Source: an uncultured Pseudobdellovibrionaceae bacterium (GTDB lineage Bacteria; Bdellovibrionota_B; Oligoflexia; Oligoflexales; Bog-1112). Taken from it: DNA of 22,018 nucleotides. The translations under genes and the position numbers were made by a program. The notes beneath the pieces are model-generated. The model ran no database searches and was not told the origin of the DNA. It was given only the letters and a program-made list of their open reading frames with translations. The stretch spans positions 1 through 22,018 of the forward strand of contig CAZWOL010000049.1 in assembly GCA_964635325.1 (NCBI GenBank), written 5' to 3'. This document shows positions 3,994-22,018 of this stretch, piece by piece (the first letter of the stretch is position 1; every line of letters begins with the position of its first letter).

Positions 3994-4332
3994 ATGAACA
4001 ATAAAATGGGAATGGACGTCTTTGTTGCGTTCCAAGTTATTCCAAGGTCCAGGAACGCTAATAATTTCGAGATTGTGGATAAAGCCATCGAAGTAGTCAA
4101 GAACTCAGGAGTTCCTTACCAAGTTAGCGCAATGGAAACGACGATGATGGGGGATCTCGATCACCTCCTTGCTATTGTCAAGGAAGCCCAGCAACGCTGT
4201 ATCGAGTGCGGGGCTGTCGAGGTGATCACAAACATAAAAATTCATAACAGAACTTCAGAAGCTACAGATAGCTTCTGCACCTACGATCGAGGAGTGACTG
4301 CTAGCAACAGCGTTTTTTTAAAATCGAACTGA
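3994..4332 (+). CDS. UPF0045 (MTH1187/YkoF-like, thiamine/HMP-binding fold) protein
   Basis: The motif VIPRS...VVKNSGVPYQVSAMETTMMGDLDHLLAIVKEA...VEVITNIKI matches the YqgV/MTH1187 family pattern (IPLG...SGLKYQVTPMGT..EGDLDE...VTTIKID). The true start is more likely ATG 4006 or 4012, with an AAGGAAGAG Shine-Dalgarno at 3983-3991. The 3' end overlaps the hflX 3' end convergently. Confidence 0.7.
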   Translation: MNNKMGMDVFVAFQVIPRSRNANNFEIVDKAIEVVKNSGVPYQVSAMETTMMGDLDHLLAIVKEAQQRCIECGAVEVITNIKIHNRTSEATDSFCTYDRGVTASNSVFLKSN

Positions 4333-5676
4333 TTTGAAGCTATCGACCATTGAGGAAAGAGCTCGAATGCGCATGTGCACACCATCTTCTGCAAAATCTT
4401 CGCTCAAAACTTTAGCATTGCGATGGACTTCGGCACGCAGATCATTGCGATCGTAGGCGATCACGATCTCTGCTTCGATCATATCTTTCTCAAAGTGTGC
4501 GATGAGTACATTGCGTAATTTTGCAACATCTTCTTTTGAACGCGCAGACATTGCAACAGCATCAGGAAACTCGTCTTGCAATGCATTGCGTGTAGGCTCG
4601 TCCACACAGTCGATCTTATTCAAAATAAGCAGGCTTGGGGTTGCATCCAGATCGAGCTTGAGCTCCGTCAAAACCCGACGAGTTGTCTCGAGTTGCGAAC
4701 GAAAGGTCGGATCCGCAGCATCGACAACGAAAATAAGCAAAGAAGCATCTGCAGCCTCATCCAAGGTCGAACGAAAGGATGCAACCAAGTCGTGAGGGAG
4801 CTTCTTGATAAATCCGACTGTATCTGATACCAATATACGAGGTAGCGTTTCGGGTTGCATAGCACGTATTGTTGTATCGAGAGTTGCAAAGAGTTTATCT
4901 TCGACAAGAACGTCACTCCCGGTAAGAGCTCGCATCAACGAAGACTTGCCTGCATTCGTGTACCCAACCAAGGCAACCTTAGCTTGGTCCCTGCGACGCT
5001 GTCTGCGTCCTTGTTGGTTTTTATGAATATCTTCGAGCTCATCTTTTAATTCTGCAATGCGATCGCGTATGCGGCGCTTGTCAAGTTCGTGAGCTGTTTC
5101 CCCAATCCCTTTCGCACCGATCCCTCCACCCTGACGATCTTGTCCGACACGATTCATCCGCAAGCGTGGGCTCAAATAGCGTAGTCGAGCGATATCAACC
5201 TGAATGCGGGCCTCACGTGTACGAGCATGTCGGTGAAAAATCTCGATGATCACCCCAGTGCGATCCATGACTTGAGCACCGGTTGCCATCTCAAGATTGC
5301 GCAACTGTGTTGGACTTAGCTCATCATCAAATACGACGGTATCTGCTTTTGGCTCAGCATCTTCATCATCAGACTCTTCAACTTCAGGGGCAGCTTCAAC
5401 AACTTTGTTCTTGCGACGTGGGGCCTGTGCCATAGACTCGATTTTGCCACTGCCTCCGGTGCGTCTACATAGCTCCTGTAGCTTGCCCTCACCAAGAATT
5501 GTTGAATTCTCGGCAATCGAACGTTTCTGCGACAAAGTCCCCACCACCTCAAAGCCAAGGGTAGTGACCAGGCGCCCTAATTCGCTGAGAGAGGCATTGT
5601 GATCCTCCAAGCTAACATTCGGTAATTGCAGGCCAACTAAGATGGTTTTCGGGGGGGTTGTTTGATTATGATGCAA
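4318..5676 (-). CDS. hflX: GTPase HflX
   Basis: An HflX N-domain is present, and DELSPTQLRNLE...VMDRTGVIIEIF matches the HflX linker region. The G1 motif is GYTNAGKSSL, G3 is DTVGF and G4 is NKID. A Lys/Arg-rich coiled segment (RRQRRRDQAKV) precedes G1. The protein carries an acidic insertion (see findings). Confidence 0.9.
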   Translation of the reverse strand: MHHNQTTPPKTILVGLQLPNVSLEDHNASLSELGRLVTTLGFEVVGTLSQKRSIAENSTILGEGKLQELCRRTGGSGKIESMAQAPRRKNKVVEAAPEVEESDDEDAEPKADTVVFDDELSPTQLRNLEMATGAQVMDRTGVIIEIFHRHARTREARIQVDIARLRYLSPRLRMNRVGQDRQGGGIGAKGIGETAHELDKRRIRDRIAELKDELEDIHKNQQGRRQRRRDQAKVALVGYTNAGKSSLMRALTGSDVLVEDKLFATLDTTIRAMQPETLPRILVSDTVGFIKKLPHDLVASFRSTLDEAADASLLIFVVDAADPTFRSQLETTRRVLTELKLDLDATPSLLILNKIDCVDEPTRNALQDEFPDAVAMSARSKEDVAKLRNVLIAHFEKDMIEAEIVIAYDRNDLRAEVHRNAKVLSEDFAEDGVHMRIRALSSMVDSFKSVRF

Positions 5677-5782: not shown

Positions 5783-8700
5783 ATGAATCAGGATTCACTT
5801 GGAGTCGATCATAAAATGAGACAAATACAAACACTCATTTACGCATCTTTGCTGCTTGTCTGTTCTTCATCCTGCAAAACACCAGCTCCCAAAATAAATA
5901 AGCGCAACAATTTAACTCCAACATCGGCTCCAACGAACGAAAAAAAAGTACCGAATCACGCTGCAAGCGCAGTGCTCTTCAAAGATATGGATAGTAGAGG
6001 GTCTTATGTTGAAGGAACTTTGAAAATCGGCAAAGCTTTTGACGAAAGCGACATAACTCACTACGTTCTTTACTGGGGAAAATCCGCATCAGAAAAAGTT
6101 CCGAACCTAGTCCCGCTTGCTAAAGTTGACAAGACAGGAGCGAATTTAAAAGTTAGCATCGCTAAAGACACCCAAATCCCCAATACAGCAAGCCATCTTA
6201 TTGTTCTCACAGGGAATGAAAATGGCGAAATGGCCAAAGGAGTTAGCACTAAGATTCACGATTTAGGTATCCCGTTAAACGCTGCACTGAGCTTGAATTT
6301 TCACAAAACAGAAGTTACTGAAAGCCATATTCAAGGAACCCTCACGATAGATCGGGCAATGGATGAAAGTGATCTGAATGCCTATGTGATTTACTGGGGT
6401 AAGTCTACAACCCAAAAACTTTCTCCCACACCTTTGGCCACTTTAAAGAAAGGCGAGGCAAAACTCACCTTTGACCTCGATATGAGTCGCCCCAAGGGGG
6501 CCGTCTATTTTTTGGTATTTGCAAAGAATGATGATGGTGAATCAGAGCGGAGTATAAGCACTCCCATTATCACAGACGGGATACCAACAATCGATATAAT
6601 CAATGCAAAATTTCAAGAGAATGATCCCAATCCAAACACAATTGGAGGAACGATCACATTCGACAAACCCTCAGATTCAACTGAAGTTGTCATTTATTGG
6701 CACAACTCTGGAGACAAAAGTCAAAGTGCTTTCGCAGAAACAAAAACTGGTGAATACAACATTCCTCAATCAACCCAGATACCAGAAGGAATGACGCATT
6801 TCTTGCTTGTTAGCAAAAACAAGATGGGTGAGAGCCTTAGCGGACAACTGATACCGATTATCAAAAGACTTGTTCCTAAAGAAGTTGGGACTGCATCGAT
6901 TAGTAAAAACGACTCGACCAATTTTCAATCATTATCTGCGATACTCACTTTGAATACACCCAATAGTTCAACAATTCAGCAATTTCACTTGTATTGGGGA
7001 CAATCGGAAACGCAAAAACTTCAAGACACACCTTTCCAAACCTATCAAGCAGACACTCCATCAATCCAGCATAGCTTTAATGAAACAACTTTAGCAGAAG
7101 ATGCGAGCCATATTTTAATTTACTCTGCAAACGAATTTGGTGAGAGCCAAACACCAGTCGCAGTAGAAATACCATACAATCTTGAATTACGTCCTAAAAG
7201 TATTGCAAAAAAAATTGAATTTAAAGATACGAATTACAAAACCCAGCATATAAGCGGACAACTCAGCATAGAGAGAGCAGACAACGAAAAGGACCTCACT
7301 GACTATGTCGTGTATTGGGCCAAGGGTGAAGCTAAGGGGGGCTTCATCGTAAAAATCCCCAAAGGAAAAACATCAGACCCCTTGCATATTGACTTTGAGA
7401 GTACAAAAATCCCAGACGATTCTACAGGGTTTTTGGTCTACACAAGCTATCACGGACAAGAGTCTATCGACAAAGCAACGCTTGATGGCATTGATGACGC
7501 ACCCAAAATTGCTAGCCTTGAGTTTACAGATGAATACACAGGTCTAATGCGTCTAGGTGGCGAATTGAAAATCACCCCTCCCCAATTGGATCTCAATTCA
7601 AGCAAGCAGGAGATTTTTAAAAACTCTTTCAAGTCCTATGAAATTTATCTCTATGCTCCTCATAAGAATAAAGAAGCAAAAACAGAAAACTGGATCCGTC
7701 TGAGCTCATTGAAAAATAGGGACAATCCTACCATTAGCTTAGATCAAGAACTCCCAAAAGAAGCCATATCAAACAATGAAATAAAGTTTAAGGTGACCAT
7801 TAAAGACAAGGAAGACTTTGAAGGTCCCGCCTTTGAAAGGACGTTTGAAAAAAAGATCCCACACGTTGCATATGCCTGGTTGCAACTTGGACTTAGCAAG
7901 GATAATCCAACTCAAATCACAGATGATGTCCCCGCAGTCGACAACTACGATTTACGCGTCATCTCAACAGACGGCTCTTGTCCCGAAGCCATTATAGGAA
8001 AAAATATAGAAACAATGAAATTGAGAGCGGGAAACAATCTATCCCAAGATTTTAAAGTCACAACTTGCCAGCTTAAAATTTCTAATCCCAATGAGAAAAT
8101 AAAGATATTGGTTGGTGATCAGACACTCACAGCTCAGCCTTTTTCATCACTCACATCTCTACAAATTGTCGGAGATACTGGATGTGGGCCCGAATGCCTG
8201 TCCAGGAACGAATTCATTGTTGTTTCTACACGAATGCGTAATCAGAACAATCAGCTTGTCATTCACCAAGGAAACTATGTCTACCAAGAAACGTCTGATA
8301 GCTGGGCAAACTGGGAAGAAGAGTTTTTTAAGCCTGCAAAAGATCTTCTCTCAGAAGCTCCTTGGGTCTTTGTACGTGGCAATCGTGAGGACTGCAAAGG
8401 AGCTTATCATGGATTCATACGTTTTCTAGATGTATGGGACTACACAGCACAAAGTCAAAAATGCAAAGAAGTTTCTCATCCCTTCAAATTTGAAAGGACT
8501 GGTGGTACATTTTACATTGCAGATTCATCTGCAGTGCCATCGCATGAGACTTCAAGTGCAGAACAAAAGCAGGGTCTTATTGATGGCCTAAGCAAAACCT
8601 TCAAAGCCATTGATTCAGATGCATCTTCGTCAAATTCAAAATTTTTACTCACAAGCAGCCCGATATGGGCATGCGAACCACAACTTGTCAGCCCCTCAGA

Positions 8701-9139
8701 AATCTGGAACAATGGTGGCTTGCGAAACTGCATAGAGCAAGGGCAGTTCCTTCGGAAGGAATTAGGAAAATTTTTTGACACAAGCAAAAATAATTTACGA
8801 AAAAAAATCTTAGCGGTCATCTCAGGCCGCCTTCACTTTTTTTCAATAGCATCGTTTCAAGATAATGAAGCAATGCAGTGGGTGATCGGCAATGGAGGCA
8901 GCAACCCACTCATCGGATGGTGGAACACGCTTGGCATGCAAATCCCCAACCTGATAACTTACAATCTAGCCATCACATCCGGTGATCGAATAGTTAAGAA
9001 GAGCTATTTTTATAACAATGACTGGGGATTTAGCCTCCTAGAGGCTGATCATGAAAACTGGACTCTCAGCAACTTCGATACTTCAGGAGCTAAAGCAGGA
9101 TACTACCAAGTTAATAGTCAGGACCGCAGCTACAAGTAG
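5783..9139 (+). CDS. giant secreted (lipo)protein: six FN3/PAP-N-like repeats + YAWLQL domain + degenerate purple-acid-phosphatase-like metallophosphoesterase domain (paralog 1)
   Basis: The signal peptide MRQIQTLIYASLLLVCSSSC suggests the true start may be ATG 5816. Six ~100-aa repeats each carry YV(L/I)YWGKS and (F/H)L(I/V)x..N..GES motifs. After them come YAWLQLGLS...C...C, then the phosphoesterase motifs IVGDTG, VIHQGNYVY, FVRGNRED, ISGRLHFF and VIGNGG. Confidence 0.85.
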   Translation: MNQDSLGVDHKMRQIQTLIYASLLLVCSSSCKTPAPKINKRNNLTPTSAPTNEKKVPNHAASAVLFKDMDSRGSYVEGTLKIGKAFDESDITHYVLYWGKSASEKVPNLVPLAKVDKTGANLKVSIAKDTQIPNTASHLIVLTGNENGEMAKGVSTKIHDLGIPLNAALSLNFHKTEVTESHIQGTLTIDRAMDESDLNAYVIYWGKSTTQKLSPTPLATLKKGEAKLTFDLDMSRPKGAVYFLVFAKNDDGESERSISTPIITDGIPTIDIINAKFQENDPNPNTIGGTITFDKPSDSTEVVIYWHNSGDKSQSAFAETKTGEYNIPQSTQIPEGMTHFLLVSKNKMGESLSGQLIPIIKRLVPKEVGTASISKNDSTNFQSLSAILTLNTPNSSTIQQFHLYWGQSETQKLQDTPFQTYQADTPSIQHSFNETTLAEDASHILIYSANEFGESQTPVAVEIPYNLELRPKSIAKKIEFKDTNYKTQHISGQLSIERADNEKDLTDYVVYWAKGEAKGGFIVKIPKGKTSDPLHIDFESTKIPDDSTGFLVYTSYHGQESIDKATLDGIDDAPKIASLEFTDEYTGLMRLGGELKITPPQLDLNSSKQEIFKNSFKSYEIYLYAPHKNKEAKTENWIRLSSLKNRDNPTISLDQELPKEAISNNEIKFKVTIKDKEDFEGPAFERTFEKKIPHVAYAWLQLGLSKDNPTQITDDVPAVDNYDLRVISTDGSCPEAIIGKNIETMKLRAGNNLSQDFKVTTCQLKISNPNEKIKILVGDQTLTAQPFSSLTSLQIVGDTGCGPECLSRNEFIVVSTRMRNQNNQLVIHQGNYVYQETSDSWANWEEEFFKPAKDLLSEAPWVFVRGNREDCKGAYHGFIRFLDVWDYTAQSQKCKEVSHPFKFERTGGTFYIADSSAVPSHETSSAEQKQGLIDGLSKTFKAIDSDASSSNSKFLLTSSPIWACEPQLVSPSEIWNNGGLRNCIEQGQFLRKELGKFFDTSKNNLRKKILAVISGRLHFFSIASFQDNEAMQWVIGNGGSNPLIGWWNTLGMQIPNLITYNLAITSGDRIVKKSYFYNNDWGFSLLEADHENWTLSNFDTSGAKAGYYQVNSQDRSYK
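5969..7852 (+). repeat. six tandem ~100-aa protein-level repeats (FN3 / purple-acid-phosphatase N-domain-like) inside paralog 1
   Basis: The repeats begin GTLKIGKAFDESDITHYVLYWGKS, GTLTIDRAMDESDLNAYVIYWGKS, TEVVIYWHNSGDKS, QQFHLYWGQSETQK, GQLSIERADNEKDLTDYVVYWAKG and SYEIYLYAP. They end SHLIVLTGNENGE, VYFLVFAKNDDGES, THFLLVSKNKMGES, SHILIYSANEFGES and GFLVYTSYHGQES respectively. They are diverged at the DNA level. Confidence 0.75.
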
Positions 9140-9345
9140 CCTTTACGATCTCATTGATTACGGCAAAAACAACCTCGTTTCAATAGATGCTACAACCTTT
9201 AGTAAGCATGCGGCATCTCAAACAAGCCTACCTAAGCATAATCGTAGAGTTCTGCATAATCTTCAAAAGATTGACAACTCTAAAACTATTTTTCAAAAAT
9301 CCAAAAATTTTTCATAACCAGGCAAGTTATCCTCTCCATTCAGAA

Positions 9346-9375
9346 TTGTAAGATTTCCATGTTACGCAATATAAT
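9346..9375 (+). promoter_or_regulatory. candidate sigma70-type promoter for paralog 2 (TTGTAA -18- TATAAT)
   Basis: TTGTAA lies at 9346-9351, followed by an 18-bp spacer and a perfect TATAAT at 9370-9375. This sits ~30 nt upstream of the GGGGGAG Shine-Dalgarno, inside the 265-bp AT-rich spacer between the paralogs. Confidence 0.35.
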
Positions 9376-9404
9376 TTTACAAAAGCCAAAAGCTCAGAGG
9401 GGGA

Positions 9405-12400
9405 GTGCCAGTGAAAAATCGTCTCTACGTCTTGTCCATTTGTGCATTTATGATGTGGGATCTAACATCCTGCGCAAATAAGAACACTGGAGGTCGCGCT
9501 CAATCCGCAGACAACCCCATACCGAGTGAGGAAACTACCCCAGCAAAGCAACCTGACAAAGGTCAAACTCATAAAACTACAGACGCTCCCACTAACGAAG
9601 TAAGCACGTCAACGACCAATGCCACGCCTCCCGAAAGTGGAAAACCAGATGAAGCTACTAATAGGAGCGAACAAAAAGAAGCTAGAGAAAACAGCGCCCC
9701 TGGAACTGGAGGGGATGCTAACGAACCTGAGCTCCCCTTACTCCCTCGAGCAGAAAAAATTGAAGCAGCGACTAAACTCACAACGAACAATGAACTAACA
9801 GGCTCCGTGTGGGTTGAACCTTCTGATCATCCAGAAAGCACTCATGACTATGTCCTATATCTCGGATCAAGTCCTTCTAGCCCCTTTGATGAAAGTAAAC
9901 TATTACTTGTTCGTACACTTCAAGAACTCAAAAATGATCAAGAATCGATTCAATTGCCCCACAAGATTTTAAGCGAACAGGATCAATATCTCCTTGTTGC
10001 ACCTCGCAGCACCGACAAAAAGCTTGGAGCACAGATCAGCATAGCACTATTTCCAATTTCCTATGCTTGGCTTCAACTTTCTACGACAGAAGGTGAATAT
10101 TCCGCTCGAGCCATCACGGAACACGACAGCTGCCCCACAGCTATCATCGATGGCAATGCACAGGATATGAAACTACGTGATAAAGATGAAAAATTTCATT
10201 TCAAAGTTTGTGAACTTAGCATTAAGGATACAGCAAAAAGCTTAATCATCGCTGACAAAGAACTGAAAATCAAACCCCGAAAAAGCATCGAAAGAATGCA
10301 TCTCATCGGCAATACCAACAATGATCAAAATGGATTCTACAGTCCACAATTCCCCAACGTTGCAAATAAGATTACGACAGATAACCCAGAACTCATCGTT
10401 CATCTAGGTGACATGGTCGAAGGAGCCAGCGACTACAATCAATGGGTGAAGCAATTTTTTGAGCCCGCAAAAGAGCTCATGAGTATGGCCCCCTTCGTTT
10501 TTGTACGTGGAGAAAAAGACAAATGCATTGCAGATAGATTCTTTGGCACAACAGACAATAAAAGCGAATGCGAATCTGTATTACCTATCTATAGTTTTAA
10601 AGTAAGAAAAGGAAAGTTCTTTGTACTCGATTCCACGGACAAAGAGCCTGAGAATAGAATGCGCTTAGAAAATGATTTCGCATTCAAATCTATACGAAAT
10701 GGAGCACAACCCAATAATTTTATACTGACTCACATGACAGCATGGGGTTGTATGCCGATTTCGTTAGGAAATCAATGCGAAGACGATGGATACTACTTTC
10801 GGGAAAAATTCTTAAATAAATTCAACCCAGACAGTTTAAACAAGTTTCAAGCAATCATATCAGCTCATATTCCACTATTTGCAATGAACTCGTATGCTAA
10901 GCATCCAATGCAGATTATTGTTGGAAACGGAGGACAGTCGATCCTAAGATACAATGGTCCCATCTCCTATGGAGAGGATCCAAAATTCCGAGAATCAAAA
11001 CCCGATCAACCTACCAACCATACAAGTGACTCTAAGTATGGCTACAGCGTCTTGGAGCCAATTAAAGATGCGTGGCAGCTGACAAGTGTCCATGCAAAAG
11101 ACAATACCAAGGCATATTTTAAGCTAGCCGATGGAAAATTCGAATCTCTTGCAAGACCCCGACCTGAGGATCAAGCGTTGAATGCTGCCAATCAATTGAA
11201 ATCGATTGAGGGATGGGTAACATTTCAAGAAGCTAACGACAAAAATATCGATAGCTATATTTTTTATATTGGAACATCACCAAAAAGCAAATGGCAAGAG
11301 GATAAGGAGATCACCAGGATCTCTACAGACTTGATCGCATCTTTTCGTAAAAATCTAGAACCAAACCAAGCCATAGATTTTTCAGAAATTGTCTATTTTC
11401 CAAGCCTTTCGCAGCTTAGAAATGACCCCAAAAATGAGCAAGATCAATACCTCCTTGTTATCCCATATAATGCTAAAGGTGAGACTGGACCTCCTATTAG
11501 CACACCACTATTTTTTCATAACTATGCCTGGCTCCAACTATCCACCGACTTAACTCAATATGATCTACGAGCCGTCAGTACCGATGTAGGATGTCCTCTA
11601 GTCCAGATCGATGGCAAAACAGAAACTATGGCTGTTCGCGCTAGAAAAGACAAAGACTTTGAGGTTACAGTCTGCAACCTAAAGATTGCAGATACCGTTA
11701 CAGACGTGAAAGTAGCTAACCAAGAATTCAAACTAAGAAAGCGAAAAGATATCAAAAAAATGCATCTAGTTGGGGATACTGGTTTCAATAATTCTTGGTC
11801 CAGCAAGGCAGGTTTTTTTAGCTGGGAAACAGCTGGACTTTATAAAGATTGGCTCTCTGGTGCAAAGCCAATGTTTCCTGCTGTAGCCAACAAAATAGCA
11901 GAGGATAGCCCAGAACTCATCATTCACATGGGTGACTATCTCTATAGCCATACAAAGACATTTGCTCAGTGGAGACAAGAATTCTTCGAACCTGCGAGTG
12001 AGATGTTGAGTAAAGCTCCTCTCGTCTTTGTCCGAGGAAACAAAGAATCCTGCGAAGAACATGGAGATGCCTACAGACGTCTCTTCGATGTTGAGCCATA
12101 TGACAAGGACAGTGCATGTAAGAAGGTCATACCGGCCTATACTATCGAGGTGGCAGGAGGAAAGTTCCTCATCTTAGACTCGTCAGATGCTCAATCCATC
12201 GAGAAGAGCTACAAACAAAAAGGTGATAATTTTTACAATCTCACCGAAACATCTTTAATTCATGATCTGAAAGATTTCGCACAGCATCTTACAGATCCAG
12301 CAACTAACTCCTTTATCATCACACACCGAGATGTCTGGGGCTGCGCACCAAAATCTACTACCACATGCTCACCTGGTGGTTACCTGATGCGAGAGAAGGT

Positions 12401-12788
12401 CCTTAATCAAGATGGGATGGAAAAATTACAGAACATACAAGCGGTCCTATCCGGTCATCTACATCTCTTTGCAATATCATCATTCAAAGATCATGCAATG
12501 CAGATCATCATTGGAAACGGTGGGACTGTGCTCAACACTCCGTACAAGATCGGTGAAGAATATGGCCCCATTTCAAATGATCCAAGTAATGTACAAAAAC
12601 ATGCAGAAGACTATAAGCATGGCTACGCTACTTTAGAACGAAATCAAAATGGCGGATGGACTCTTATCAGTAAATTTACCAAAGGTAGTGATAGAACTTT
12701 TGTCTTGAAGAATAGAAGTATTGAAACTCTACAATGGAATCTACACGAAAGAGAAGAAGACAAAGAGAATTCTGGACAGGAAGAATAA
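9405..12788 (+). CDS. giant secreted lipoprotein with two tandem FN3-like + YAWLQL + purple-acid-phosphatase-like modules (paralog 2)
   Basis: A lipoprotein signal (VLSICAFMMWDLTS-C) is followed by a ~100-aa T/P/E/K-rich disordered linker. Module A is DYVLYLGSSP...YAWLQLSTTEG...HLIGNTNN...IVHLGDMVEG...FVRGEKDKC...ISAHIPLF. Module B is SYIFYIGTSP...YAWLQLSTDLT...HLVGDTG...IIHMGDYLY...FVRGNKESC...ITHRD...LSGHLHLF...IIGNGG. The start is GTG 9405 or, more likely, GTG 9411, with a GGGGGAG Shine-Dalgarno at 9398-9404. Confidence 0.85.
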   Translation: MPVKNRLYVLSICAFMMWDLTSCANKNTGGRAQSADNPIPSEETTPAKQPDKGQTHKTTDAPTNEVSTSTTNATPPESGKPDEATNRSEQKEARENSAPGTGGDANEPELPLLPRAEKIEAATKLTTNNELTGSVWVEPSDHPESTHDYVLYLGSSPSSPFDESKLLLVRTLQELKNDQESIQLPHKILSEQDQYLLVAPRSTDKKLGAQISIALFPISYAWLQLSTTEGEYSARAITEHDSCPTAIIDGNAQDMKLRDKDEKFHFKVCELSIKDTAKSLIIADKELKIKPRKSIERMHLIGNTNNDQNGFYSPQFPNVANKITTDNPELIVHLGDMVEGASDYNQWVKQFFEPAKELMSMAPFVFVRGEKDKCIADRFFGTTDNKSECESVLPIYSFKVRKGKFFVLDSTDKEPENRMRLENDFAFKSIRNGAQPNNFILTHMTAWGCMPISLGNQCEDDGYYFREKFLNKFNPDSLNKFQAIISAHIPLFAMNSYAKHPMQIIVGNGGQSILRYNGPISYGEDPKFRESKPDQPTNHTSDSKYGYSVLEPIKDAWQLTSVHAKDNTKAYFKLADGKFESLARPRPEDQALNAANQLKSIEGWVTFQEANDKNIDSYIFYIGTSPKSKWQEDKEITRISTDLIASFRKNLEPNQAIDFSEIVYFPSLSQLRNDPKNEQDQYLLVIPYNAKGETGPPISTPLFFHNYAWLQLSTDLTQYDLRAVSTDVGCPLVQIDGKTETMAVRARKDKDFEVTVCNLKIADTVTDVKVANQEFKLRKRKDIKKMHLVGDTGFNNSWSSKAGFFSWETAGLYKDWLSGAKPMFPAVANKIAEDSPELIIHMGDYLYSHTKTFAQWRQEFFEPASEMLSKAPLVFVRGNKESCEEHGDAYRRLFDVEPYDKDSACKKVIPAYTIEVAGGKFLILDSSDAQSIEKSYKQKGDNFYNLTETSLIHDLKDFAQHLTDPATNSFIITHRDVWGCAPKSTTTCSPGGYLMREKVLNQDGMEKLQNIQAVLSGHLHLFAISSFKDHAMQIIIGNGGTVLNTPYKIGEEYGPISNDPSNVQKHAEDYKHGYATLERNQNGGWTLISKFTKGSDRTFVLKNRSIETLQWNLHEREEDKENSGQEE

Positions 12789-12892
12789 CGGAAGCGAACC
12801 CCCCTGGCATTTCCGCAATTTTCTAAATTTTCCACTCCCATTCCAGCAACTTATACATAAAGCCTAAAACCCTACCTCACTTTGCCGAAAAC

Positions 12893-12917
12893 TCCTGCAC
12901 CACAGATTTGTGCAGGA
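12893..12917 (+). promoter_or_regulatory. 8-bp-stem inverted repeat TCCTGCAC-N9-GTGCAGGA overlapping the Shine-Dalgarno of the hybrid kinase gene
   Basis: The stems at 12893-12900 and 12910-12917 are perfect with a 9-nt loop. The 3' arm contains the GCAGGA Shine-Dalgarno 7 nt before ATG 12925. Confidence 0.3.
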
Positions 12918-15900
12918 TTCATCAATGGCTCATGATGCAAAAGAAAAAGAACGTCTAGAGGAACTGGCAAGTTTTCACATATTAGGAACTGGACCAGAAC
13001 CTTTGTTCGACGACATTACTTTTTTAGCAGCACGCATTTTCCATGTACCAATAGCTGCCGTAAGTATCCTAGATGAGCATCGCAATTGGTACAAATCCAA
13101 GGTTGGCATCGAACAGGATGAAGTTCCACGCAAAGATGCGTTCTGCAATGTGACTATTGCTGATATGGACCTACTCGTTATCGAGGATACGTTGGAAGAC
13201 GAACGTTTCAAAAACAATCCCTTCCAAATACGTTTTTATGCTGGAGCTCCACTGATCACTTCAAATGGGCTTGCATTAGGGACTCTGTGCATACTTGATC
13301 GCAATCCAAGAAAATTTGCAGCTGAAGACCGCGAACTACTGCTTACACTTGCACGACAGGTGATGAGTCACTTGGAGGCACGCAAGCTTCACCAGATATT
13401 CGAAGAAAAAGAAGAACAAAACAAGCTGATGCGCTACTGCTTGGATGCTGCAATGGTCGGTTTTTGGGAGTGGGACCTTACGACACAGTCGCTTGCTTGG
13501 GACCATAATATGTATCGCCTTTACGGTGTCAAAGAAGGCAAATATACCAACAACTCTGAGGCTTGGGATCAGATTCTCTATGAGAATGATCGCAACAAAG
13601 CTTATGCTGATATTAAGAAATCTTTAGATGGCACAGGTGAATTTCAATCACATTTTCGTGTCAAAACTGATAACACGGGTTTGAAGACCATTGCAGCGAA
13701 AGGAAAGGTACTCTTTTCGAATGAAGGCAAACCCATCCGAATGGTTGGCATCAACTGGGACATTTCTGCAGAGACTGAAAAAGCAGAATTCTTCCGAGGT
13801 ACTTTTGAAAACTCATCACTGCCTATAGCTGTTTTTGATCCCCAAGGCTTATTCTCACGCGTGAACAAAGCATTTGCAAATTTACTAGGGTATACTATCG
13901 ACTTCTTTCCAGGAAAAAAACTCACGACTTTCTTAGATTCTCATGACTTTGTCAAAATTCAGCTCAAAATGGAAGAAGCGGTTCAAATGAAAAGCTCACG
14001 TATCATGAGCTTTGAAAGCCAATGCAGACATATCACTGGTCGCCTAGTACCTGTACTTATACGTACACAACTATTTTTAACTCATGACAAAAGCCCTGCA
14101 TATTTCCTATTGTTTGTCACAGATTTGACGGAGCAGAAAAAAGCAAATGACGAGCTTATCGAAAAGAATAAGGCAATACTTGCGGAACGTAATCGCTTTG
14201 AAAACCTTGTTTTTGCAATCAACCAATCCGCTATTGTTGCACATACAGACACAGAAGGTAACCTAACCTCAGTAAATGCAAAATTCTGTGAAGTTAGCGG
14301 CTATGCTGAGCATGAATTATTGGGACAAAATTTTCGGATGCTAAGCTCAGGTACGCAGTCTGATAGATACTTTCTGAAAGCCTGGAAGGTCCTCAACTCT
14401 GGTGTTGCATGGAATGGAGAGGTCAGTTACTGCAAAAAGAATAAAGAGATCTTTTGGGTTGAAAGCACAATTGTTCCACTCATGAACTCTGATGGAAAAA
14501 TTGATCACTACATTGTCATCAGCTTCGAAATCACCAAACGTAAGCAGCTGGATGATCACCTTCGTGAAAGTCGCGAGCTTGCAAAAAAAGCAAGTCGAGC
14601 AAAGTCGGACTTTCTTTCCAATATGAGTCACGAGATTCGCACGCCACTCAACGGTATCATCGGCATGACAGATCTGCTCGTTGGAACCGAACTCGCAGCT
14701 CCTCAGCGCAAATACGCCAATGCTATTTTAGATTCAGGGAAAGTTTTGCTGCATCTGATCAATGACATTCTTGAATTTTCTAAGATTGAGTCCGGAAAAA
14801 TCGAGTTAGAGATTGGTGAAACAGATTTGGGCCACCTACTCCGTGGTCTTGTTATGCCACACCAATTTCAATGCACATCGAAAAACATCGGCTTTGATTT
14901 TCAGCCCGTCGAATTAGAACAAATGATTTTTGCTGATGGCGGGCGCCTAGGTCAGATCTTGAATAATCTTTTGAGCAACTCTGTCAAATTTACCTCCAAA
15001 GGTAAGGTCTCTCTCAAAGTCGAAATTATGAATCAGACATCTGAAAATATAACCTTGCTCTTCAAAGTTGAGGATACAGGTATTGGCATTGATGCCAAGT
15101 ATCAGAAGCATCTTTTCAAAGCTTTTACTCAGGGTGAGAGTATTTTTCAAAAATACGGTGGTACAGGACTTGGGTTATCCATCGTTAAAAAGCTTATTGA
15201 CTTGATGGGTGGCAAGCTCTCCTTCGAAAGCAAAAGCGGCGAAGGAAGTTCCTTTCAAATCGAAATTACATTCAAAAAATCAGCTACCCTTGTACGAGCA
15301 CACTCTATCGAAAATGAATTCAAGAAAGTTCCTCTCAAAAAATTAAAGGGACGAGTGCTAATTGCAGAAGATAATATTCTCAATCAAAGCATTGTCTATG
15401 AAATGCTTGTGGACCTAGGGTGCCAGGTAGCTGTTGCAGACAATGGACGAGAAGTCTTGCGTCAACTACAAAAAGATAGCTTCGACCTTATCCTTATGGA
15501 CTGTCGCATGCCAGAAATGGATGGCTATGAGTGTACGAAAGCGATTCGTAGCCATGATTCGGAAGCCATCGCAAAACTGAGAATCATTGCACTTACAGCT
15601 AATGCCTCTGCCGAAGACCGAGACCGCTGCCTTGCTGTTGGAATGAACAGCTTCATATCCAAACCGATCACAAAAGCTAAACTTTTTGCGACCCTCACAA
15701 CCTACTTGGGAGACGCTGATGCCCCCGTGGAGCATGAGAAAGCACCTGATGCTCTCAGCGGCAAAGTCGATCACAGCATTATTAATGACCTACTAGCAAT
15801 GGGCCGACGCAAACCCTCGTTTTTCCCACGTCAGCGGGAGCTCTTCACAACTCATGCGAAAGCAAAGCTAGAAACTCTGGCAGCGGAGATAAAAAATGTA

Positions 15901-16122
15901 AACCGTAAGGAAATACGGGAAATTGCACACTATTTGAAGGGATCAAGCGCTGGTCTTGGCTCACTCGAAATGGCAAGGCTTTGCAAAGAACTTGAACTCA
16001 GTGTAGAACGTTTGAGCGAAGAAGAACTTGAGAAATATCGCGCAGATATTAATCGAGAGTTTGATGTCTTTGTAAAGTACTTAAATACAATCATCGTAAA
16101 ACAAGAGGGCGAGACACCGTGA
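12910..16122 (+). CDS. cytoplasmic unorthodox hybrid sensor histidine kinase (GAF-PAS-PAS-PAS-HisKA-HATPase_c-REC-Hpt)
   Basis: An N-terminal GAF domain is present (FLAARIFHVPIAAVSILD...GTLCILDRNPRKF), followed by PAS-like blocks (FWEWDLTTQSLAWD; GNLTSVNAKFCEVSGY...WNGEV). The H-box SNMSHEIRTPLNG has its His codon at 14629-14631. The N-box is LGQILNNLLSNSVKFT, G1 is VEDTGIGI and G2 is GGTGLGLSIVKKL. The REC domain is VLIAEDN...DLILMDCRMPEMDG, with its Asp codon at 15499-15501. The Hpt motif is IAHYLKGSSAGLG, with its His codon at 15928-15930. There is no TM segment. The true start is likely ATG 12925 (MAHDAKEKER); the listed 12910 start is a GTG. Confidence 0.9.
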   Translation: MQDSSMAHDAKEKERLEELASFHILGTGPEPLFDDITFLAARIFHVPIAAVSILDEHRNWYKSKVGIEQDEVPRKDAFCNVTIADMDLLVIEDTLEDERFKNNPFQIRFYAGAPLITSNGLALGTLCILDRNPRKFAAEDRELLLTLARQVMSHLEARKLHQIFEEKEEQNKLMRYCLDAAMVGFWEWDLTTQSLAWDHNMYRLYGVKEGKYTNNSEAWDQILYENDRNKAYADIKKSLDGTGEFQSHFRVKTDNTGLKTIAAKGKVLFSNEGKPIRMVGINWDISAETEKAEFFRGTFENSSLPIAVFDPQGLFSRVNKAFANLLGYTIDFFPGKKLTTFLDSHDFVKIQLKMEEAVQMKSSRIMSFESQCRHITGRLVPVLIRTQLFLTHDKSPAYFLLFVTDLTEQKKANDELIEKNKAILAERNRFENLVFAINQSAIVAHTDTEGNLTSVNAKFCEVSGYAEHELLGQNFRMLSSGTQSDRYFLKAWKVLNSGVAWNGEVSYCKKNKEIFWVESTIVPLMNSDGKIDHYIVISFEITKRKQLDDHLRESRELAKKASRAKSDFLSNMSHEIRTPLNGIIGMTDLLVGTELAAPQRKYANAILDSGKVLLHLINDILEFSKIESGKIELEIGETDLGHLLRGLVMPHQFQCTSKNIGFDFQPVELEQMIFADGGRLGQILNNLLSNSVKFTSKGKVSLKVEIMNQTSENITLLFKVEDTGIGIDAKYQKHLFKAFTQGESIFQKYGGTGLGLSIVKKLIDLMGGKLSFESKSGEGSSFQIEITFKKSATLVRAHSIENEFKKVPLKKLKGRVLIAEDNILNQSIVYEMLVDLGCQVAVADNGREVLRQLQKDSFDLILMDCRMPEMDGYECTKAIRSHDSEAIAKLRIIALTANASAEDRDRCLAVGMNSFISKPITKAKLFATLTTYLGDADAPVEHEKAPDALSGKVDHSIINDLLAMGRRKPSFFPRQRELFTTHAKAKLETLAAEIKNVNRKEIREIAHYLKGSSAGLGSLEMARLCKELELSVERLSEEELEKYRADINREFDVFVKYLNTIIVKQEGETP

Positions 16123-19318: not shown

Positions 19319-20452
19319 GTGAAGACTCTAACCATAAAAAGATCACAACTTACTTACCCCGGATCCTATCGTGATTTGCGAGTCGATACATACAGCTCCC
19401 AATCATCTATAAAACGTGCTGTTGTGATGACGACAGCATTTATTGAAAATGGGTACTGGTATCAGATCGAAAAGAAAGGATACTCGCTCGCTAAAAGAAT
19501 AGCGCAAGAAGGATTTGATGTCTACGTCTTGAGTTTTGTACTCAAAGAGAAATGGCCGGCGCACAAAATTCCCCAAGATGCTTCTTTTAGCGAAATGGTC
19601 TGCGAACATTTACCCAATCTACATCGACAGCTTGCTGCGCAGTACCAAGACATTCACTATATTGGACATAGTTTTGGTGTCACTGTTCTACTGGCATATT
19701 TGATGGGCTACCGCAAAAATCCTAAGGGTGAGTGGATGCCAGATGCCAAAGATGCTGAGCAAAATGCGAACAAAGTCCGTTCTTTTGTAAGCCTTGCGGG
19801 TCTTTTCCAACTGCAGTGGCCTAAGCGCAGTTTGTTTCCAGATCCAACGGCATTCAAAACGTGGATCTATCCGCTTCTAAGTTATACAGCAGCGCAGCTA
19901 CCTTCATTAGCGAAAATCCCCTGGGAGCAACGCCTCCCCACGAGCAAGCTCTCTGCAACACGGCATTGGCCAGTATCTGCAGTAACACTAGGCATGCTGA
20001 AATGCCTCGAAGCGATTGGACTTATGCCTAGCTTTCATTTTGCAAATGCGGATATGGAAGCTCTGCGTCTTGCAATGAGTGAAGGCTCAAGCGATGAGAG
20101 CATGGAGCTCTTTCGAACTGTACTTGGACTGCACCCAAATGCTCGTCCTCTCGTTTCGAATACAGCGAAGCGAGGTCGAGCGCCATCGAATAAAAAAGCT
20201 GCACATGCAGCACTCCATAATTTTTGCGAGGATCTTAGGCACATTCACACCCCCATTTTATTTATACAGGGCGAGTTAGATCAGATCACACATCCACAGA
20301 CCATACAACGATATGGTTTTGATCGCGTTCAGTCTGTTGACAAAACGTTTACAATTCTAAAAAACACTGGACACCAAGATATGCTGGCAGCTAAAAATCC
20401 CGAGAAACTCTTTGTTGAACTTAAGAATTGGCTAAACCGTGAGTTCTCCTAA
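19319..20452 (+). CDS. alpha/beta-hydrolase fold esterase/lipase-like protein
   Basis: The nucleophile elbow is IGHSFG. An acid residue sits in GELDQI and a His in NTGHQDM, with a ~150-aa lid insertion between the Ser and Asp. The start is GTG 19319, with an AGGAGGA Shine-Dalgarno 7 nt upstream. ATG 19427 is an alternative start. Confidence 0.75.
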   Translation: MKTLTIKRSQLTYPGSYRDLRVDTYSSQSSIKRAVVMTTAFIENGYWYQIEKKGYSLAKRIAQEGFDVYVLSFVLKEKWPAHKIPQDASFSEMVCEHLPNLHRQLAAQYQDIHYIGHSFGVTVLLAYLMGYRKNPKGEWMPDAKDAEQNANKVRSFVSLAGLFQLQWPKRSLFPDPTAFKTWIYPLLSYTAAQLPSLAKIPWEQRLPTSKLSATRHWPVSAVTLGMLKCLEAIGLMPSFHFANADMEALRLAMSEGSSDESMELFRTVLGLHPNARPLVSNTAKRGRAPSNKKAAHAALHNFCEDLRHIHTPILFIQGELDQITHPQTIQRYGFDRVQSVDKTFTILKNTGHQDMLAAKNPEKLFVELKNWLNREFS

Positions 20453-21530
20453 ATTGACGACTGAAAAAACCATAGGTGTTCTTCTCATTAATACAGGTAC
20501 GCCTTCGCATCCGACCTACCTTGGTGTGCGACGCTACCTTCAGCAATTTCTGAGCGATCGACGGGTTCTAAACATGTCTCCCCTCGCTCGTTTTCTTTTG
20601 TTGCAACTCGTGATCTTACCTCTACGTTCAGCACGCTCGGCACACGCGTATAGACAGATTTGGACAAAAGAAGGCTCTCCATTACGCACCCATCATTTTC
20701 GTCTTGGTGAGGGCTTGCAAGCGGCACTGGGCCCTCGCTACAAAGTCGTATGTGGGATGCGTTATGGTGAGCCATCACTAGAAAGCGTTTGGGAGCAGCT
20801 CAAAGATGTCTCCGAGTGTGTGCTCTTTCCACTTTTTCCACAGTATGCAGCATCCTCAACAGCAAGCGCACTAGCCGAAGCGATGCGAGTGATGGGCCTG
20901 CATTGGAATGTTCCGACTGTTCGTACTATTGCCCCATTTTTTGCAGACCATGGTTTTATAGATGCTTTTGTTCAGCAGGTTCATGCAAGAGCTCGTGAAG
21001 TTATGGGCACTCCTAAGCATGCTGAAACAATGCAACAAGATACAGGCACATCCATAAAACCATGGGAGCACCTTGTGATGAGCTTTCATGGTTTGCCAGA
21101 AGACCATGTGGAACAAAGCGGATGCAAACGCTCATGCCTGCAAAATACTTGCACCACAACAAACACATCCTGCTACCGTGCTCAGGCTTTCCAAACCGCA
21201 CGTCTGCTTGCGCAAGCCCTAGGCCTGTCGAATGATGAATATTCGGTTGGCTTTCAGTCTCGTCTAGGTTCAAAACCGTGGATCAAACCCTACTTTGACC
21301 ACGTGCTTCCTGAGCTAAGGAAGAAGGGTTTTAGACGCATTGGTGTCGTGTGCCCCTCGTTCGTTGCAGACTGCTTAGAAACACTGGAAGAGATTCAAAT
21401 TCGGGCTCGAACATCATGGAAAGAGTTGGGGGGAGAGGAACTGATTTTTGTACCGTGTCTGAATGCAAGTGATGTGTGGGTCCAAGCAGCAGCACGGTTG
21501 GTGAGAGACGCAGGGCTAGGGCAGACCTAG
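20439..21530 (+). CDS. hemH: ferrochelatase with internal Cys-rich insertion
   Basis: The N-terminus reads IGVLLINTGTPSHPT...YLQQFLSDRRV. The motifs SFHGLPE, IGVVCPSFVADCLETLEE and IFVPCLN are classic ferrochelatase blocks. The start is ambiguous: GTG 20439, overlapping the upstream gene by 14 nt, or TTG 20454. Confidence 0.9.
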   Translation: MSSPKLTTEKTIGVLLINTGTPSHPTYLGVRRYLQQFLSDRRVLNMSPLARFLLLQLVILPLRSARSAHAYRQIWTKEGSPLRTHHFRLGEGLQAALGPRYKVVCGMRYGEPSLESVWEQLKDVSECVLFPLFPQYAASSTASALAEAMRVMGLHWNVPTVRTIAPFFADHGFIDAFVQQVHARAREVMGTPKHAETMQQDTGTSIKPWEHLVMSFHGLPEDHVEQSGCKRSCLQNTCTTTNTSCYRAQAFQTARLLAQALGLSNDEYSVGFQSRLGSKPWIKPYFDHVLPELRKKGFRRIGVVCPSFVADCLETLEEIQIRARTSWKELGGEELIFVPCLNASDVWVQAAARLVRDAGLGQT

Positions 21531-22018
21531 CTCCGTCACAAATTTAGTAAAAGGCAGAACTCTAACATTGTCTATTTGGAAGTCTTTTGTTCCGAGGTGA
21601 ACTTGATAAAAGAAAGGAATAGACGTGCGTTCCGCAAAATAGCGAATAGCAGGTTGGATTTGTTGCTCACCGGTTTTGCATTCCACTGCAAAAATCGGCT
21701 TTTTATCACGAAGCACTACAAAATCGACTTCACGCTTATCCGTATCTCGTATAAAACGCAGCTCCATTCCATAGCCTTCTATATCTTCGATATAATGACA
21801 GTACTTGAGCAACTGAGATGCAATAAGATTTTCAAATTTTGCTCCGGGGCTTTCAATAGACGACCAATCCCAGAGATATAACTTTTTCTCTTTTTTAACA
21901 GCACGTATCTTGGGTGCGCCATAAGGTAAAATTCGAAAACAAATATAAAGATTTTCGAGAATAGACAACCATCTTTCAACCGTCTTGTGATCAACCTGCA
22001 AGTCCTCACGCAAACTAT
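21516..22018 (-). CDS. AAA-family ATPase with C-terminal DUF4143 domain (COG1373-like), 5'-truncated by window edge
   Basis: The C-terminal region has the DUF4143-type pattern ...TVERWLSILENLYICFRILPYG...KKLYLWDWS...FENLIASQLLKY...GMELRFIRDTDKREVDFVV. The reading frame remains open to position 22018. Confidence 0.65.
   Translation of the reverse strand, partial: SLREDLQVDHKTVERWLSILENLYICFRILPYGAPKIRAVKKEKKLYLWDWSSIESPGAKFENLIASQLLKYCHYIEDIEGYGMELRFIRDTDKREVDFVVLRDKKPIFAVECKTGEQQIQPAIRYFAERTSIPFFYQVHLGTKDFQIDNVRVLPFTKFVTELGLP

Follow-up and report, generated by a model that had tools for sequence, protein, structure and literature searches.

In the window, that is, the whole 22,018-nt stretch of DNA that was analysed, gene 1 (5783..9139, plus strand; 1118 aa) and gene 2 (9405..12788, plus strand; 1127 aa) are intact ORFs of more than 1100 codons each without interruption, and both products matched Pfam Metallophos (PF00149) above the cut-off of 21.5 bits (gene 1, 27.8 bits, E = 4e-6; gene 2, 69.4 bits, E = 7e-19, in two stretches). 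The gene 1 product (P0077 in the database) runs from a signal-peptide-like N-terminus with Cys residues through six tandem repeats of ~100 aa (5966..7867, plus strand), which were delimited by alignment and motif scan and follow the pattern YVxYWGxS ... FLV ... GES, to a single C-terminal module resembling purple acid phosphatases (PAPs), with an eroded metal site (7868..9139, plus strand). The gene 2 product (P0009) begins with a lipoprotein-type N-terminus, whose putative lipobox, LTSC, was picked out by eye from the translation, and continues with a low-complexity linker, a copy of the ~100-aa repeat (9738..10055, plus strand), the eroded module A (10056..11160, plus strand), a further repeat copy (11160..11519, plus strand) and module B with its full ligand set (11520..12788, plus strand), both repeat copies being placed by alignment. 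A Pfam search with the ~100-aa repeats returned no family above cut-off; they are probably beta-sandwich spacer domains.

A sequence scan recovered every motif string that the preliminary description of this DNA had listed for the three modules, at the place given for it; the 15 strings scanned for have one occurrence each, all on the plus strand. The gene 1 module carries GDTG (8171-8182), GNYVY (8270-8284), GNRE (8378-8389) and GRLH (8825-8836), and TSSP (8651-8662) instead of xxxH at the place of motif IV, in keeping with the earlier remark that it has no VxxH equivalent. Module A carries GNTN (10308-10319), GDMVE (10407-10421), GEKD (10509-10520), LTHM (10725-10736) and AHIP (10863-10874), and module B GDTG (11772-11783), GDYLY (11931-11945), GNKE (12036-12047), ITHRD (12318-12332) and GHLH (12453-12464). 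All three modules begin with YAWLQL and can be aligned end to end, with pairwise identities of 28-42%; they are true paralogs.

The modules belong to a large unnamed bacterial family of more than 2000 clusters at 50% identity, which extends over Caulobacterales, Wolbachia, Oligoflexia, Binatia and Acidobacteria, and 164 sampled members outside the window served as the family baseline. Nearly all 164 carry the consensus GDTGC / GDYxYR / GNHExC / xxH / GHxH, each ligand position is conserved in 156-162 of them, and no columns of the family alignment are more conserved than the motif positions. The GNH His position is occupied by His in 160 of the 164 members, by Arg in three and by Asn in one, with no instance of Lys. 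The deviations of the window modules from this consensus are far from chance. Neither the window proteins nor five canonical relatives fell into an NCBIfam family, no function is assigned to the family in NCBIfam or in the literature searched, and the gene neighbourhoods of four relatives had no common neighbours and offered no hint of function. No orthologs of gene 1 or gene 2 were found, the closest outside protein being 38% identical, and a GTDB species scan gave a best identity to the window proteins of 31%; both proteins form singleton clusters, and P0009 had no exact look-up match. Neither gene was present on the contigs of the two closest HflX relatives, and the contig of the closest relative, P0001, showed no synteny with the window.

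The assignment to PAPs, which the preliminary description had made from the letters of the motifs, was confirmed by fold comparison. AF2 models were obtained for module B (pLDDT 79.9, pTM 0.86) and module A (pLDDT 81.2, pTM 0.87), the latter with an intact PAP fold predicted, and Foldseek ranked PAPs first for both, as top PDB matches of module B (E = 6e-15, probability 1.0) and of module A (E = 5e-13, probability 1.0; TMq 0.64 for kidney bean PAP, kbPAP). The leading matches of both predicted models were plant and mammalian PAPs, with TMq values of 0.50-0.66. DSSP placed every motif of the two models directly C-terminal to a beta-strand (E80-84, E133-137, E168-171, E264-268 and E308-311 in module B, with equivalents in module A). 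A family profile alignment to lupin PPD1 and wheat PAPhy put motifs I-III on PAP positions, with GNKE of module B opposite the GNHE of both enzymes, and hhalign paired D20, D49, N75 and H76 of lambda phosphatase with D86, D139, N174 and K175, the alignment of the family to this enzyme reaching motifs I-III and ending before IV and V. For motif V, the Pfam match ran as far as the second His (position 189 of the 191 in the profile). The correspondence of the strings to PAP ligand positions was borne out in this way for motifs I-III and V, and from the His found in 162 of 164 family members and the beta-strand end predicted in both models we infer that motif IV is a metal-ligand position as well. 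Among sequence comparisons, only the family profile reached PAPs, and for motifs I-III only; phmmer searches of PDB sequences with module B and with its C-terminal part alone gave noise (topoisomerase IV, TonB), and of the PAP-specific Pfam domains Pur_ac_phosph_N was not matched and Metallophos_C remained sub-threshold in module A (17.9 vs 23 bits). Such empty single-sequence searches are what one would expect if the motifs were chance look-alikes and not PAP ligand positions, a reading that we regard as practically impossible in the face of a Pfam match above cut-off, profile alignments that set motifs I-III on known PAP and lambda phosphatase ligands, a fold search that returned PAPs with probability 1.0, and motif positions that are the most conserved columns of so large a family.

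Ligand roles were taken from kbPAP, in which His202, the second-sphere His of GNH(D/E), binds the substrate phosphate (PMC2267794). Module B has all seven PAP metal ligands, spread over its GDTG, GDYLY, GNKE, ITHRD and GHLH motifs. Four of the seven are present in the gene 1 module, which retains the Fe-site trio (the Asp of GDTG, the Tyr of GNYVY and the second His of GRLH) together with the Asn of GNRE; its other three positions hold Asn for the bridging Asp, Ser for the His of motif IV and Arg for the leading His of motif V. The ligands at these three positions, the bridging Asp and the two His residues, are the ones that module A keeps out of the seven; all three Fe-site ligands are gone (GNTN, GDMVE, AHIP), and the motif III Asn is replaced by Glu (GEKD). 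The gene 1 module and module A have lost complementary halves of the dinuclear site. The Arg that follows the motif IV His is kept in module B and lost in the two others. The exchange of the GNH His for a basic residue, reported earlier for every module, is confirmed, with Lys in A and B and Arg in the gene 1 module, which leaves none of them with the second-sphere His of PAPs. Module B deviates further by having Ser for the GDxxY-Arg, and Phe together with a long inserted loop for the GDTG-Cys; it is the only sequence seen that combines all seven ligands with a residue other than His at GNH, and a literature search for GNKE, GNKD, GNRE or GNRD in metallophosphoesterases found nothing. The earlier picture of one near-intact and two eroded sites holds insofar as one dinuclear site is complete and two are broken, while module B, which also lacks the GDTG-Cys and the GDxxY-Arg, is less intact than had been claimed.

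Modules A and B are sisters (NJ bootstrap 99.5%), and the gene 1 module branches separately. Since A is the sister of B, the metal site was eroded twice, in two independent lineages; the same sisterhood dates the erosion of A to the time since the duplication, over which B retained every ligand down to an identity of 42%. The 'graded decay' of the preliminary description does not survive this tree, which gives two independent erosions with complementary half-site losses, and a single graded series was rejected on the same branching order. The Arg codon of GNRE in the gene 1 module is CGT, one transition from the His codon CAT, and the Lys codon of GEKD in module A is AAA, the same codon as in GNKE of the sister module B; these Arg and Lys codons suggest that the GNH His was also lost twice.

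Relative-rate tests, which count changes in a distance-like way on a profile alignment of sequences that have diverged very far, showed module A to be faster than module B with all five outgroups (unique changes 53:33, 54:29, 52:30, 36:20 and 40:22; P = 0.008-0.044), and the rates of module B and P0001, a canonical GNHE relative, were not different. For the gene 1 module against P0001, one outgroup gave 49:20 (P = 0.0006) and three others 45:27, 34:19 and 52:36 (P = 0.044, 0.053 and 0.11), so that its excess is outgroup-dependent and clearly significant in one of four tests. Retention of ligand versus non-ligand positions did not differ significantly in Fisher tests (P = 0.22 and 0.27), the numbers being small, and was given no weight in the argument. 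The suggested partition into enzyme and pseudo-enzyme gains some support from the faster change of A, from a rate in B no higher than in the canonical relative and from the fold of A, intact in its model; the gene 1 module, with its excess clear for one outgroup only, adds less. The higher rates (of A with every outgroup, of the gene 1 module with some) could also mark functionless remnants in which a domain-level pseudogenisation is under way, as could the lost catalytic residues and a lineage-specific locus with G+C below that of its flanks. We find this hardly credible, as both ORFs are unbroken over more than 1100 codons and show no stop or frameshift despite an old divergence (28-42% identity), the AF2 model of A is confident (pTM 0.87), and the degenerate modules retain 60-74% of the other highly conserved family columns, Cys pairs and GNGG included, compared with 72% in canonical P0001.

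On balance, we lean slightly towards an explanation in which module B acts as a metal-dependent phosphoesterase whose substrate pocket is altered, with module A and the gene 1 module as binding or scaffold domains devoid of catalysis. Genes 1 and 2 would encode large exported, probably membrane-anchored proteins of an Oligoflexia-like bacterium, in which the ~100-aa spacer repeats would hold each PAP-fold module outward. Module B would most likely bind two metals, metal 1 through Asp, the bridging Asp, Tyr and His and metal 2 through Asn, His and His, and would hydrolyse a phosphate ester or anhydride. Its Lys stands at the second-sphere position from which a His normally makes a hydrogen bond to the substrate phosphate and, by analogy with the Arg of LpxH, may shift substrate preference without abolishing activity. 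In module A and the gene 1 module a dinuclear centre could no longer assemble, and the two may have been kept for a structural or ligand-binding role; a basic residue in the phosphate pocket would permit both to bind an anion or phospho-ligand, the extra Arg at the former Zn-ligand position of the gene 1 module would also favour anion binding, and alternatively either could partner the active module. A GAP50-like state, with the PAP fold present and its residues largely replaced, is predicted for module A from its model and indicated for the gene 1 module on sequence alone.

The absence from module B of three near-invariant residues (GNH His, GDxxY-Arg and GDTG-Cys) counts against this explanation. 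It is possible, and to our minds doubtful, that none of the three modules is catalytic, inactivation having begun with the loss of the GNH His and B being the least eroded copy, with metals kept for fold stability or ligand binding. The Lys at GNH is common to A and B and hence older than their duplication, and the loss of two further near-invariant residues from B points the same way. In the family, moreover, a residue other than His at GNH is associated with broken metal sites (ligand loss in 2 of 3 such members vs 3 of 158 with His, P = 0.002), by which B could be an early-stage dead domain. Yet B held all seven ligands and the motif IV Arg while its sister A lost four ligands, it has changed no faster than the canonical GNHE relative, and LpxH demonstrates that catalysis is compatible with a basic residue at the position of the GNH His. 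Loss of the GDxxY-Arg is likewise seen in 11 outside members with GNHE, nine of which have Ser.

Because the half-site losses are complementary, each eroded module is left with a plausible single-metal ligand set (Asp/Glu/His/His in A; Asp/Asn/Tyr/His in the gene 1 module, with Arg replacing the second metal), and the fold and many other conserved residues are kept, as they would be if all three modules were catalytic and the eroded ones worked by mononuclear or metal-independent chemistry. This we judge very improbable: we know of no metallophosphoesterase that works with one half-site, ligand-less PAP-fold proteins such as GAP50 have no detectable activity, and A and, with some outgroups, the gene 1 module have evolved faster. 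The clustering of losses in half-sites also needs no functional cause, since the rest of a site is expected to drift once one of its ligands is lost.

A bolder proposal, which we consider unlikely, is that GNH His to Arg or Lys is a recurrent, selected route to phosphate-binding pseudo-phosphatases, and that the half-site modules would be single-metal or metal-free receptors for a phosphorylated surface or prey molecule that is passed on to the Lys-bearing module B. The GNH change apparently occurred at least twice at this locus, judging by the CGT and AAA codons, and is also seen in three unrelated family members, at least two and perhaps all of them short of one or more metal ligands; of the complementary half-sites, the Fe-type one survives in gene 1, with Arg at the place of a Zn ligand, and the Zn-type one in module A.

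Domains that are dead enzymes are a familiar feature of eukaryotic phosphatases and kinases and are rarely documented in bacterial secreted hydrolases; the arrangement of an enzyme with dead copies is known in other organisms and, to our knowledge, has not yet been described in bacteria of this kind. If active, module B would be the first PAP-type enzyme we know of with Lys at the GNH His. The locus sets side by side, in one genome and in the same fold, a full metal site and two different half-sites, a natural comparison that could show which residues of the PAP site serve metal binding, phosphate binding and turnover, and it draws attention to a large family without an assigned function. Its practical impact will be modest unless a substrate or partner emerges.

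Among known systems, PAPs (kidney bean, sweet potato, lupin PPD1, wheat PAPhy and mammalian TRAP) share with the modules an N-terminal beta-sandwich followed by a metallophosphoesterase core and, in module B and the family consensus, the seven-ligand set, with its GDxxY Tyr and a divalent site of the His2-Asp-Asn kind. They differ in that identities are 12-15%, with no significant sequence match to any solved PAP, that the family has features of its own, namely conserved Cys residues in GDTGC and GNHExC, a GNGG motif and the Arg that follows GDxxY, and that the window modules have Lys or Arg at the GNH His, two of them being short of ligands. Receptor tyrosine phosphatases likewise unite a competent and a degenerate paralogous domain (D1 and D2), derived from an internal duplication, in one polypeptide; their fold and chemistry are of the unrelated Cys-based PTP type, and they are eukaryotic and cytoplasmic, so that the likeness is one of logic only. 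PhoD, an exported bacterial PAP relative with a tyrosinate-Fe site and a GDYxY-like motif II, was the fourth fold match of module A; its metals are one Fe and two Ca ions, held by Asp and Asn (PMC4223295). Membership of the PhoD family was rejected, as PF09423 scored 17.6 against a cut-off of 27, in the motif II region only, and the divalent site here is of the PAP type (Asn/His/His). LpxH (UDP-2,3-diacylglucosamine pyrophosphatase) is an active calcineurin-like metallophosphoesterase in which the GNH(D/E) His is naturally Arg and all metal ligands are kept (PMC3087551), and its activity with GNR is the one precedent for the unusual mechanism that the preliminary description had entertained. 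Like module B, it combines a basic residue at the GNH His (Arg vs Lys) with full ligands, a one-residue analogy only, and it comes from another subfamily: its motif I is DxH, the Tyr ligand is absent, a cap binds lipid, and the enzyme is cytoplasmic. Membership of the LpxH group was rejected, given the GDxG / GDxxY motifs of the window modules, the lack of an NCBIfam match and a fold match at rank 50 only. In GAP50 of Apicomplexa the PAP fold has had most of its metal and catalytic residues exchanged, phosphatase activity is not detectable, and the protein acts as a membrane-anchored scaffold (PMC2172186); its structure (PDB 3tgh) was a fold match of both models, at rank 27 for module B and rank 13 for module A. 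Eukaryotic and single-domain, with known partner proteins and no active paralogous module in the same polypeptide, GAP50 is nevertheless the closest parallel to module A and to the gene 1 module.

Genes 1 (5783-9139, 1118 aa) and 2 (9405-12788, 1127 aa) are uninterrupted open reading frames on the forward strand, and calcineurin-like phosphoesterase domains were detected above the Pfam cut-off once in gene 1, where the purple acid phosphatase (PAP)-like module forms the C-terminal third (7868-9139), and twice in gene 2, most of which consists of modules A (10056-11160) and B (11520-12788); NCBIfam provided no name for either product. The three modules, all starting with YAWLQL, could be aligned end to end with 28-42% identity over trimmed family columns. 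In protein numbering they take up roughly residues 696-1118 of gene 1 and residues 218-585 (A) and 706-1127 (B) of gene 2. A repeat of ~100 aa (…YVxYWGxS…FLV…GES…), for which no Pfam family was matched at cut-off, occurs on the same strand six times in gene 1 (5966-7867) and once ahead of each gene 2 module (9738-10055 and 11160-11519), which indicates that the duplicated unit in gene 2 is repeat plus module. The gene 2 product carries a predicted lipoprotein-type signal (…LTSC) at its N-terminus, and that of gene 1 a predicted hydrophobic leader that contains Cys. Outside the window, an initial homolog search returned eight homologs, all with the canonical motifs GDTGC / GDYxYR / GNHExC / (T/S)H(R/K)P / SGHxHxF / GNGG, and when 1.8 billion representatives were searched with a profile, 2296 clusters matched (961 at E ≤ 1e-30). 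Scanning the GTDB species genomes turned up more than 569 loci (Caulobacterales, Wolbachia, Oligoflexia, Binatia, Acidobacteria and other groups). The canonical form was present in many Wolbachia genomes (loci L023, L026, L046, L056, L057, L069 and L074) and in a Naegleria-associated Legionellaceae MAG (L002), so the family is kept in reduced intracellular genomes.

Several lines of evidence placed the motifs on the metal ligands of PAPs. AF2 models of module B (pLDDT 79.9, pTM 0.86) and module A (pLDDT 81.2, pTM 0.87) both had plant PAPs as top PDB matches (lupin PPD1, wheat PAPhy, sweet potato and kidney bean), followed by mammalian PAPs, with probability 1.0 and query-normalised TM of 0.50-0.66 for the PAP fold matches. 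Alignment of the family profile with PAP chains paired GDTGC with GDMG, HMGDYNY with HIGDLCY or LLGDVSY, and RGNHE with SGNHE or EGNHE, thereby covering motifs I-III, and hhalign paired D20, D49, R53, N75 and H76 of lambda phosphatase with D86, D139, S143, N174 and K175 of module B, the position of S143 being Arg in the family. The last residue covered by the Pfam match of module B is the second His of GHLH (profile position 189/191), and in both models all motifs lie directly behind a beta-strand, as in all metallophosphoesterases. The correspondence to PAP ligand positions assumed in the preliminary description was thus borne out for motifs I-III and V, and we infer the assignment of motif IV, which appears well founded given the profile, hhalign, Pfam, fold and strand-position evidence together. 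In fold and ligand signature the family is PAP-like; since the PAP-specific Pfam domains and the PhoD profile all remained below cut-off, it falls outside both sets of curated sequence families, PAP and PhoD, and PhoD has a divalent site of its own unlike that of this family (PMC4223295).

All 15 motif strings were recovered, each once, those of the preliminary description at the places it had given, and the deviations that it reported proved far beyond chance when set against 164 sampled outside members. Kidney bean PAP binds Fe(III) through Asp135, Tyr167 and His325 and Zn(II) through Asn201, His286 and His323, with Asp164 bridging the metals and His202 of the GNH motif hydrogen-bonding the substrate from the second sphere (PMC2267794). 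On this key, module B is complete for all seven ligands, the His202 equivalent being the one residue missing. The gene 1 module retains its Fe-specific set of three, namely the motif I Asp (161/164 outside members), the motif II Tyr (161/164) and the second His of motif V (160/164), as well as the Zn-site Asn of motif III (156/164, plus 6 Asp), and has lost the bridging Asp of motif II (to Asn; 162/164) and both Zn-site His residues, in motif IV to Ser (162/164) and at the first His of motif V to Arg (159/164). In module A, none of the three Fe-specific ligands is left (Asp to Asn, the Tyr, and His to Pro) and Glu replaces the motif III Asn; the bridge and both Zn-site His residues are kept. 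The eroded sites are therefore complementary halves of one centre rather than steps of the graded decay proposed earlier. As half-site clustering is to be expected once a first ligand has been lost, the clustering alone is no sign of function, and we regard mononuclear catalysis by the eroded modules, for which such half-sites might be taken, as unlikely.

At the GNH position itself, His is present in 160/164 outside members (Arg 3, Asn 1, Lys 0) and replaced in all three modules, by Lys in A and B and by Arg in gene 1, as had been noted. In full-length numbering these residues are K371 (A) and K880 (B) of gene 2 and R868 of gene 1; S848 of gene 2 follows GDYLY in module B, and R1016 of gene 1 is the Arg at the first His position of motif V. 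The earlier picture of one near-intact and two eroded sites stands as far as the full ligand set of module B is concerned; module B is nevertheless less intact than it was said to be, being without the GDTGC Cys (163/164 in the family) and without the Arg that follows GDxxY (153/164). That Arg is also missing from 11 outside members that keep GNHE, with Ser in 9 of the 11, and the Arg behind the motif IV His is kept in B and lost in A and the gene 1 module. These additional losses speak for the main rival reading, that module B is dead as well, and so does the family-wide tie between a non-His residue at GNH and broken sites: ligand loss was found in 2/3 complete sequences with non-His versus 3/158 of the others (P = 0.002), a third Arg-bearing member, which has lost ligands too, having been left out because its motif V is missing. 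With all seven ligands of module B in place on the other side, we consider a dead module B a serious possibility of distinctly lower probability. Four single-module proteins from unrelated metagenomes (P0070, P0082, P0091 and P0097) likewise have broken metal sites, three of them with Arg at GNH, which indicates that dead copies arise repeatedly in the family.

In a neighbour-joining tree (200 bootstraps), A and B were sisters (99.5%) and formed a clade (100%) with the module of gene 1 and with P0001, a metagenomic protein and their closest outside relative; the bootstrap for monophyly of the three window modules was only 34.5%. P0001 is canonical (GDTGC, GDYVYR, GNHES). Its open frame (locus L081, 3-1277) is truncated by the contig end right at the LYAWLQL module boundary, so that P0001 may correspond to the final module of a longer, multi-module protein from a related organism. 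As the sisters A and B both carry Lys, this residue is older than their duplication, and the topology implies that A eroded after that duplication and the gene 1 module separately. The GNH-position codon is CGT in gene 1, one transition from the His codon CAT, and AAA in A and B, a difference more simply explained if the His was lost twice, independently.

Relative-rate counts gave module A 1.6-1.9 times more lineage-specific changes than B (five outgroups, P = 0.008-0.044) and the gene 1 module 1.4-2.5 times more than P0001 (four outgroups). This second excess was clear with a single outgroup (P = 0.0006), the remaining three giving marginal or non-significant values (P = 0.044, 0.053 and 0.11); B and P0001 did not differ in rate (46:35, 28:28 and 38:29). 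Of 50 further columns with ≥85% conservation across the family, B kept 36, the gene 1 module 37, A 30 and P0001 36, which suggests that the eroded modules have preserved their folds and structural residues and that their metal ligands have fallen to background level or below. A direct Fisher comparison of ligand with non-ligand retention was not significant with these small numbers. Functionless decay of the eroded modules, with which their faster change might agree, is thus unlikely in view of the retained columns.

The genes on either side are of an ordinary chromosomal kind (GAPDH, thymidine kinase, HflX, a hybrid sensor kinase, ferrochelatase and others). Among named relatives, those most similar to HflX are from Oligoflexales (64%) and Oligoflexus (57%), so the contig probably derives from an uncultured Oligoflexia bacterium (Bdellovibrionota). 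G+C is 0.40-0.44 in genes 1, 2 and the sensor kinase (6000-16000) against 0.46-0.48 in the flanks, and genes 1 and 2 are much richer in A than in T along their coding strand (AT skew up to 0.23), which may reflect foreign origin or merely exported proteins rich in Lys, Asn and Glu. In a relative with a 70% identical HflX (locus L089, 8800-12441), abhydrolase, hflX and ferrochelatase genes are contiguous on one strand, whereas in the window hflX (4318-5676) is inverted and 14 kb from the abhydrolase-ferrochelatase pair (19319-21530); genes 1 and 2, the sensor kinase and three further genes lie between them. This arrangement suggests insertion plus inversion. The sensor kinase (12910-16122; GAF, three PAS, HisKA, HATPase, receiver and Hpt) has the orientation of gene 2 and begins 121 bases past it. 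Genes 1 and 2 are separated by 265 bases (9140-9404), which contain the region's two best sigma-70-like matches (9271-9300 and 9346-9375, 10/12 each, consensus matches only) and in which no terminator-like site was found; gene 2 could have a promoter of its own. The contig end cuts off a DUF4143 gene (21516-22013, reverse strand) that corresponds to the C-terminal part of an AAA_14-type ATPase; a full-length gene of this kind adjoins P0001 on its contig, and as the two are only 26% identical, the parallel is probably coincidence. Orthologs of genes 1 and 2 were found neither in the GTDB species scan nor on the contigs of the two closest HflX relatives, and the neighbourhoods of four relatives and the HflX-relative contigs offered nothing informative on function.

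Taken together, we lean, by a modest degree, towards module B as a predicted dinuclear-centre phosphoesterase with a remodelled substrate pocket, and A and the gene 1 module as predicted non-catalytic PAP-fold domains: B would still build the dinuclear centre and hydrolyse phosphoesters with its altered pocket, and the other two would be kept for binding or scaffolding, without catalysis. The principle of dead enzyme domains is well known from Vps29, plant 'inactive' PAPs and the tandem D1/D2 domains of receptor tyrosine phosphatases. Literature searches returned neither a match for GN(K/R)(D/E) in metallophosphoesterases nor any account of a bacterial protein that combines live with dead PAP-type modules. 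LpxH, an active pyrophosphatase with GNR and all ligands intact, sets a precedent for catalysis when a basic residue, like the Lys of module B, replaces the GNH His (PMC3087551). For the dead domains the precedent is GAP50, which was also among the fold matches of our models and serves as a scaffold with a PAP fold devoid of ligands (PMC2172186). Dead phosphatase domains being thus already known from GAP50 and others, live and dead PAP-type modules within one bacterial protein would represent a variant of that principle.
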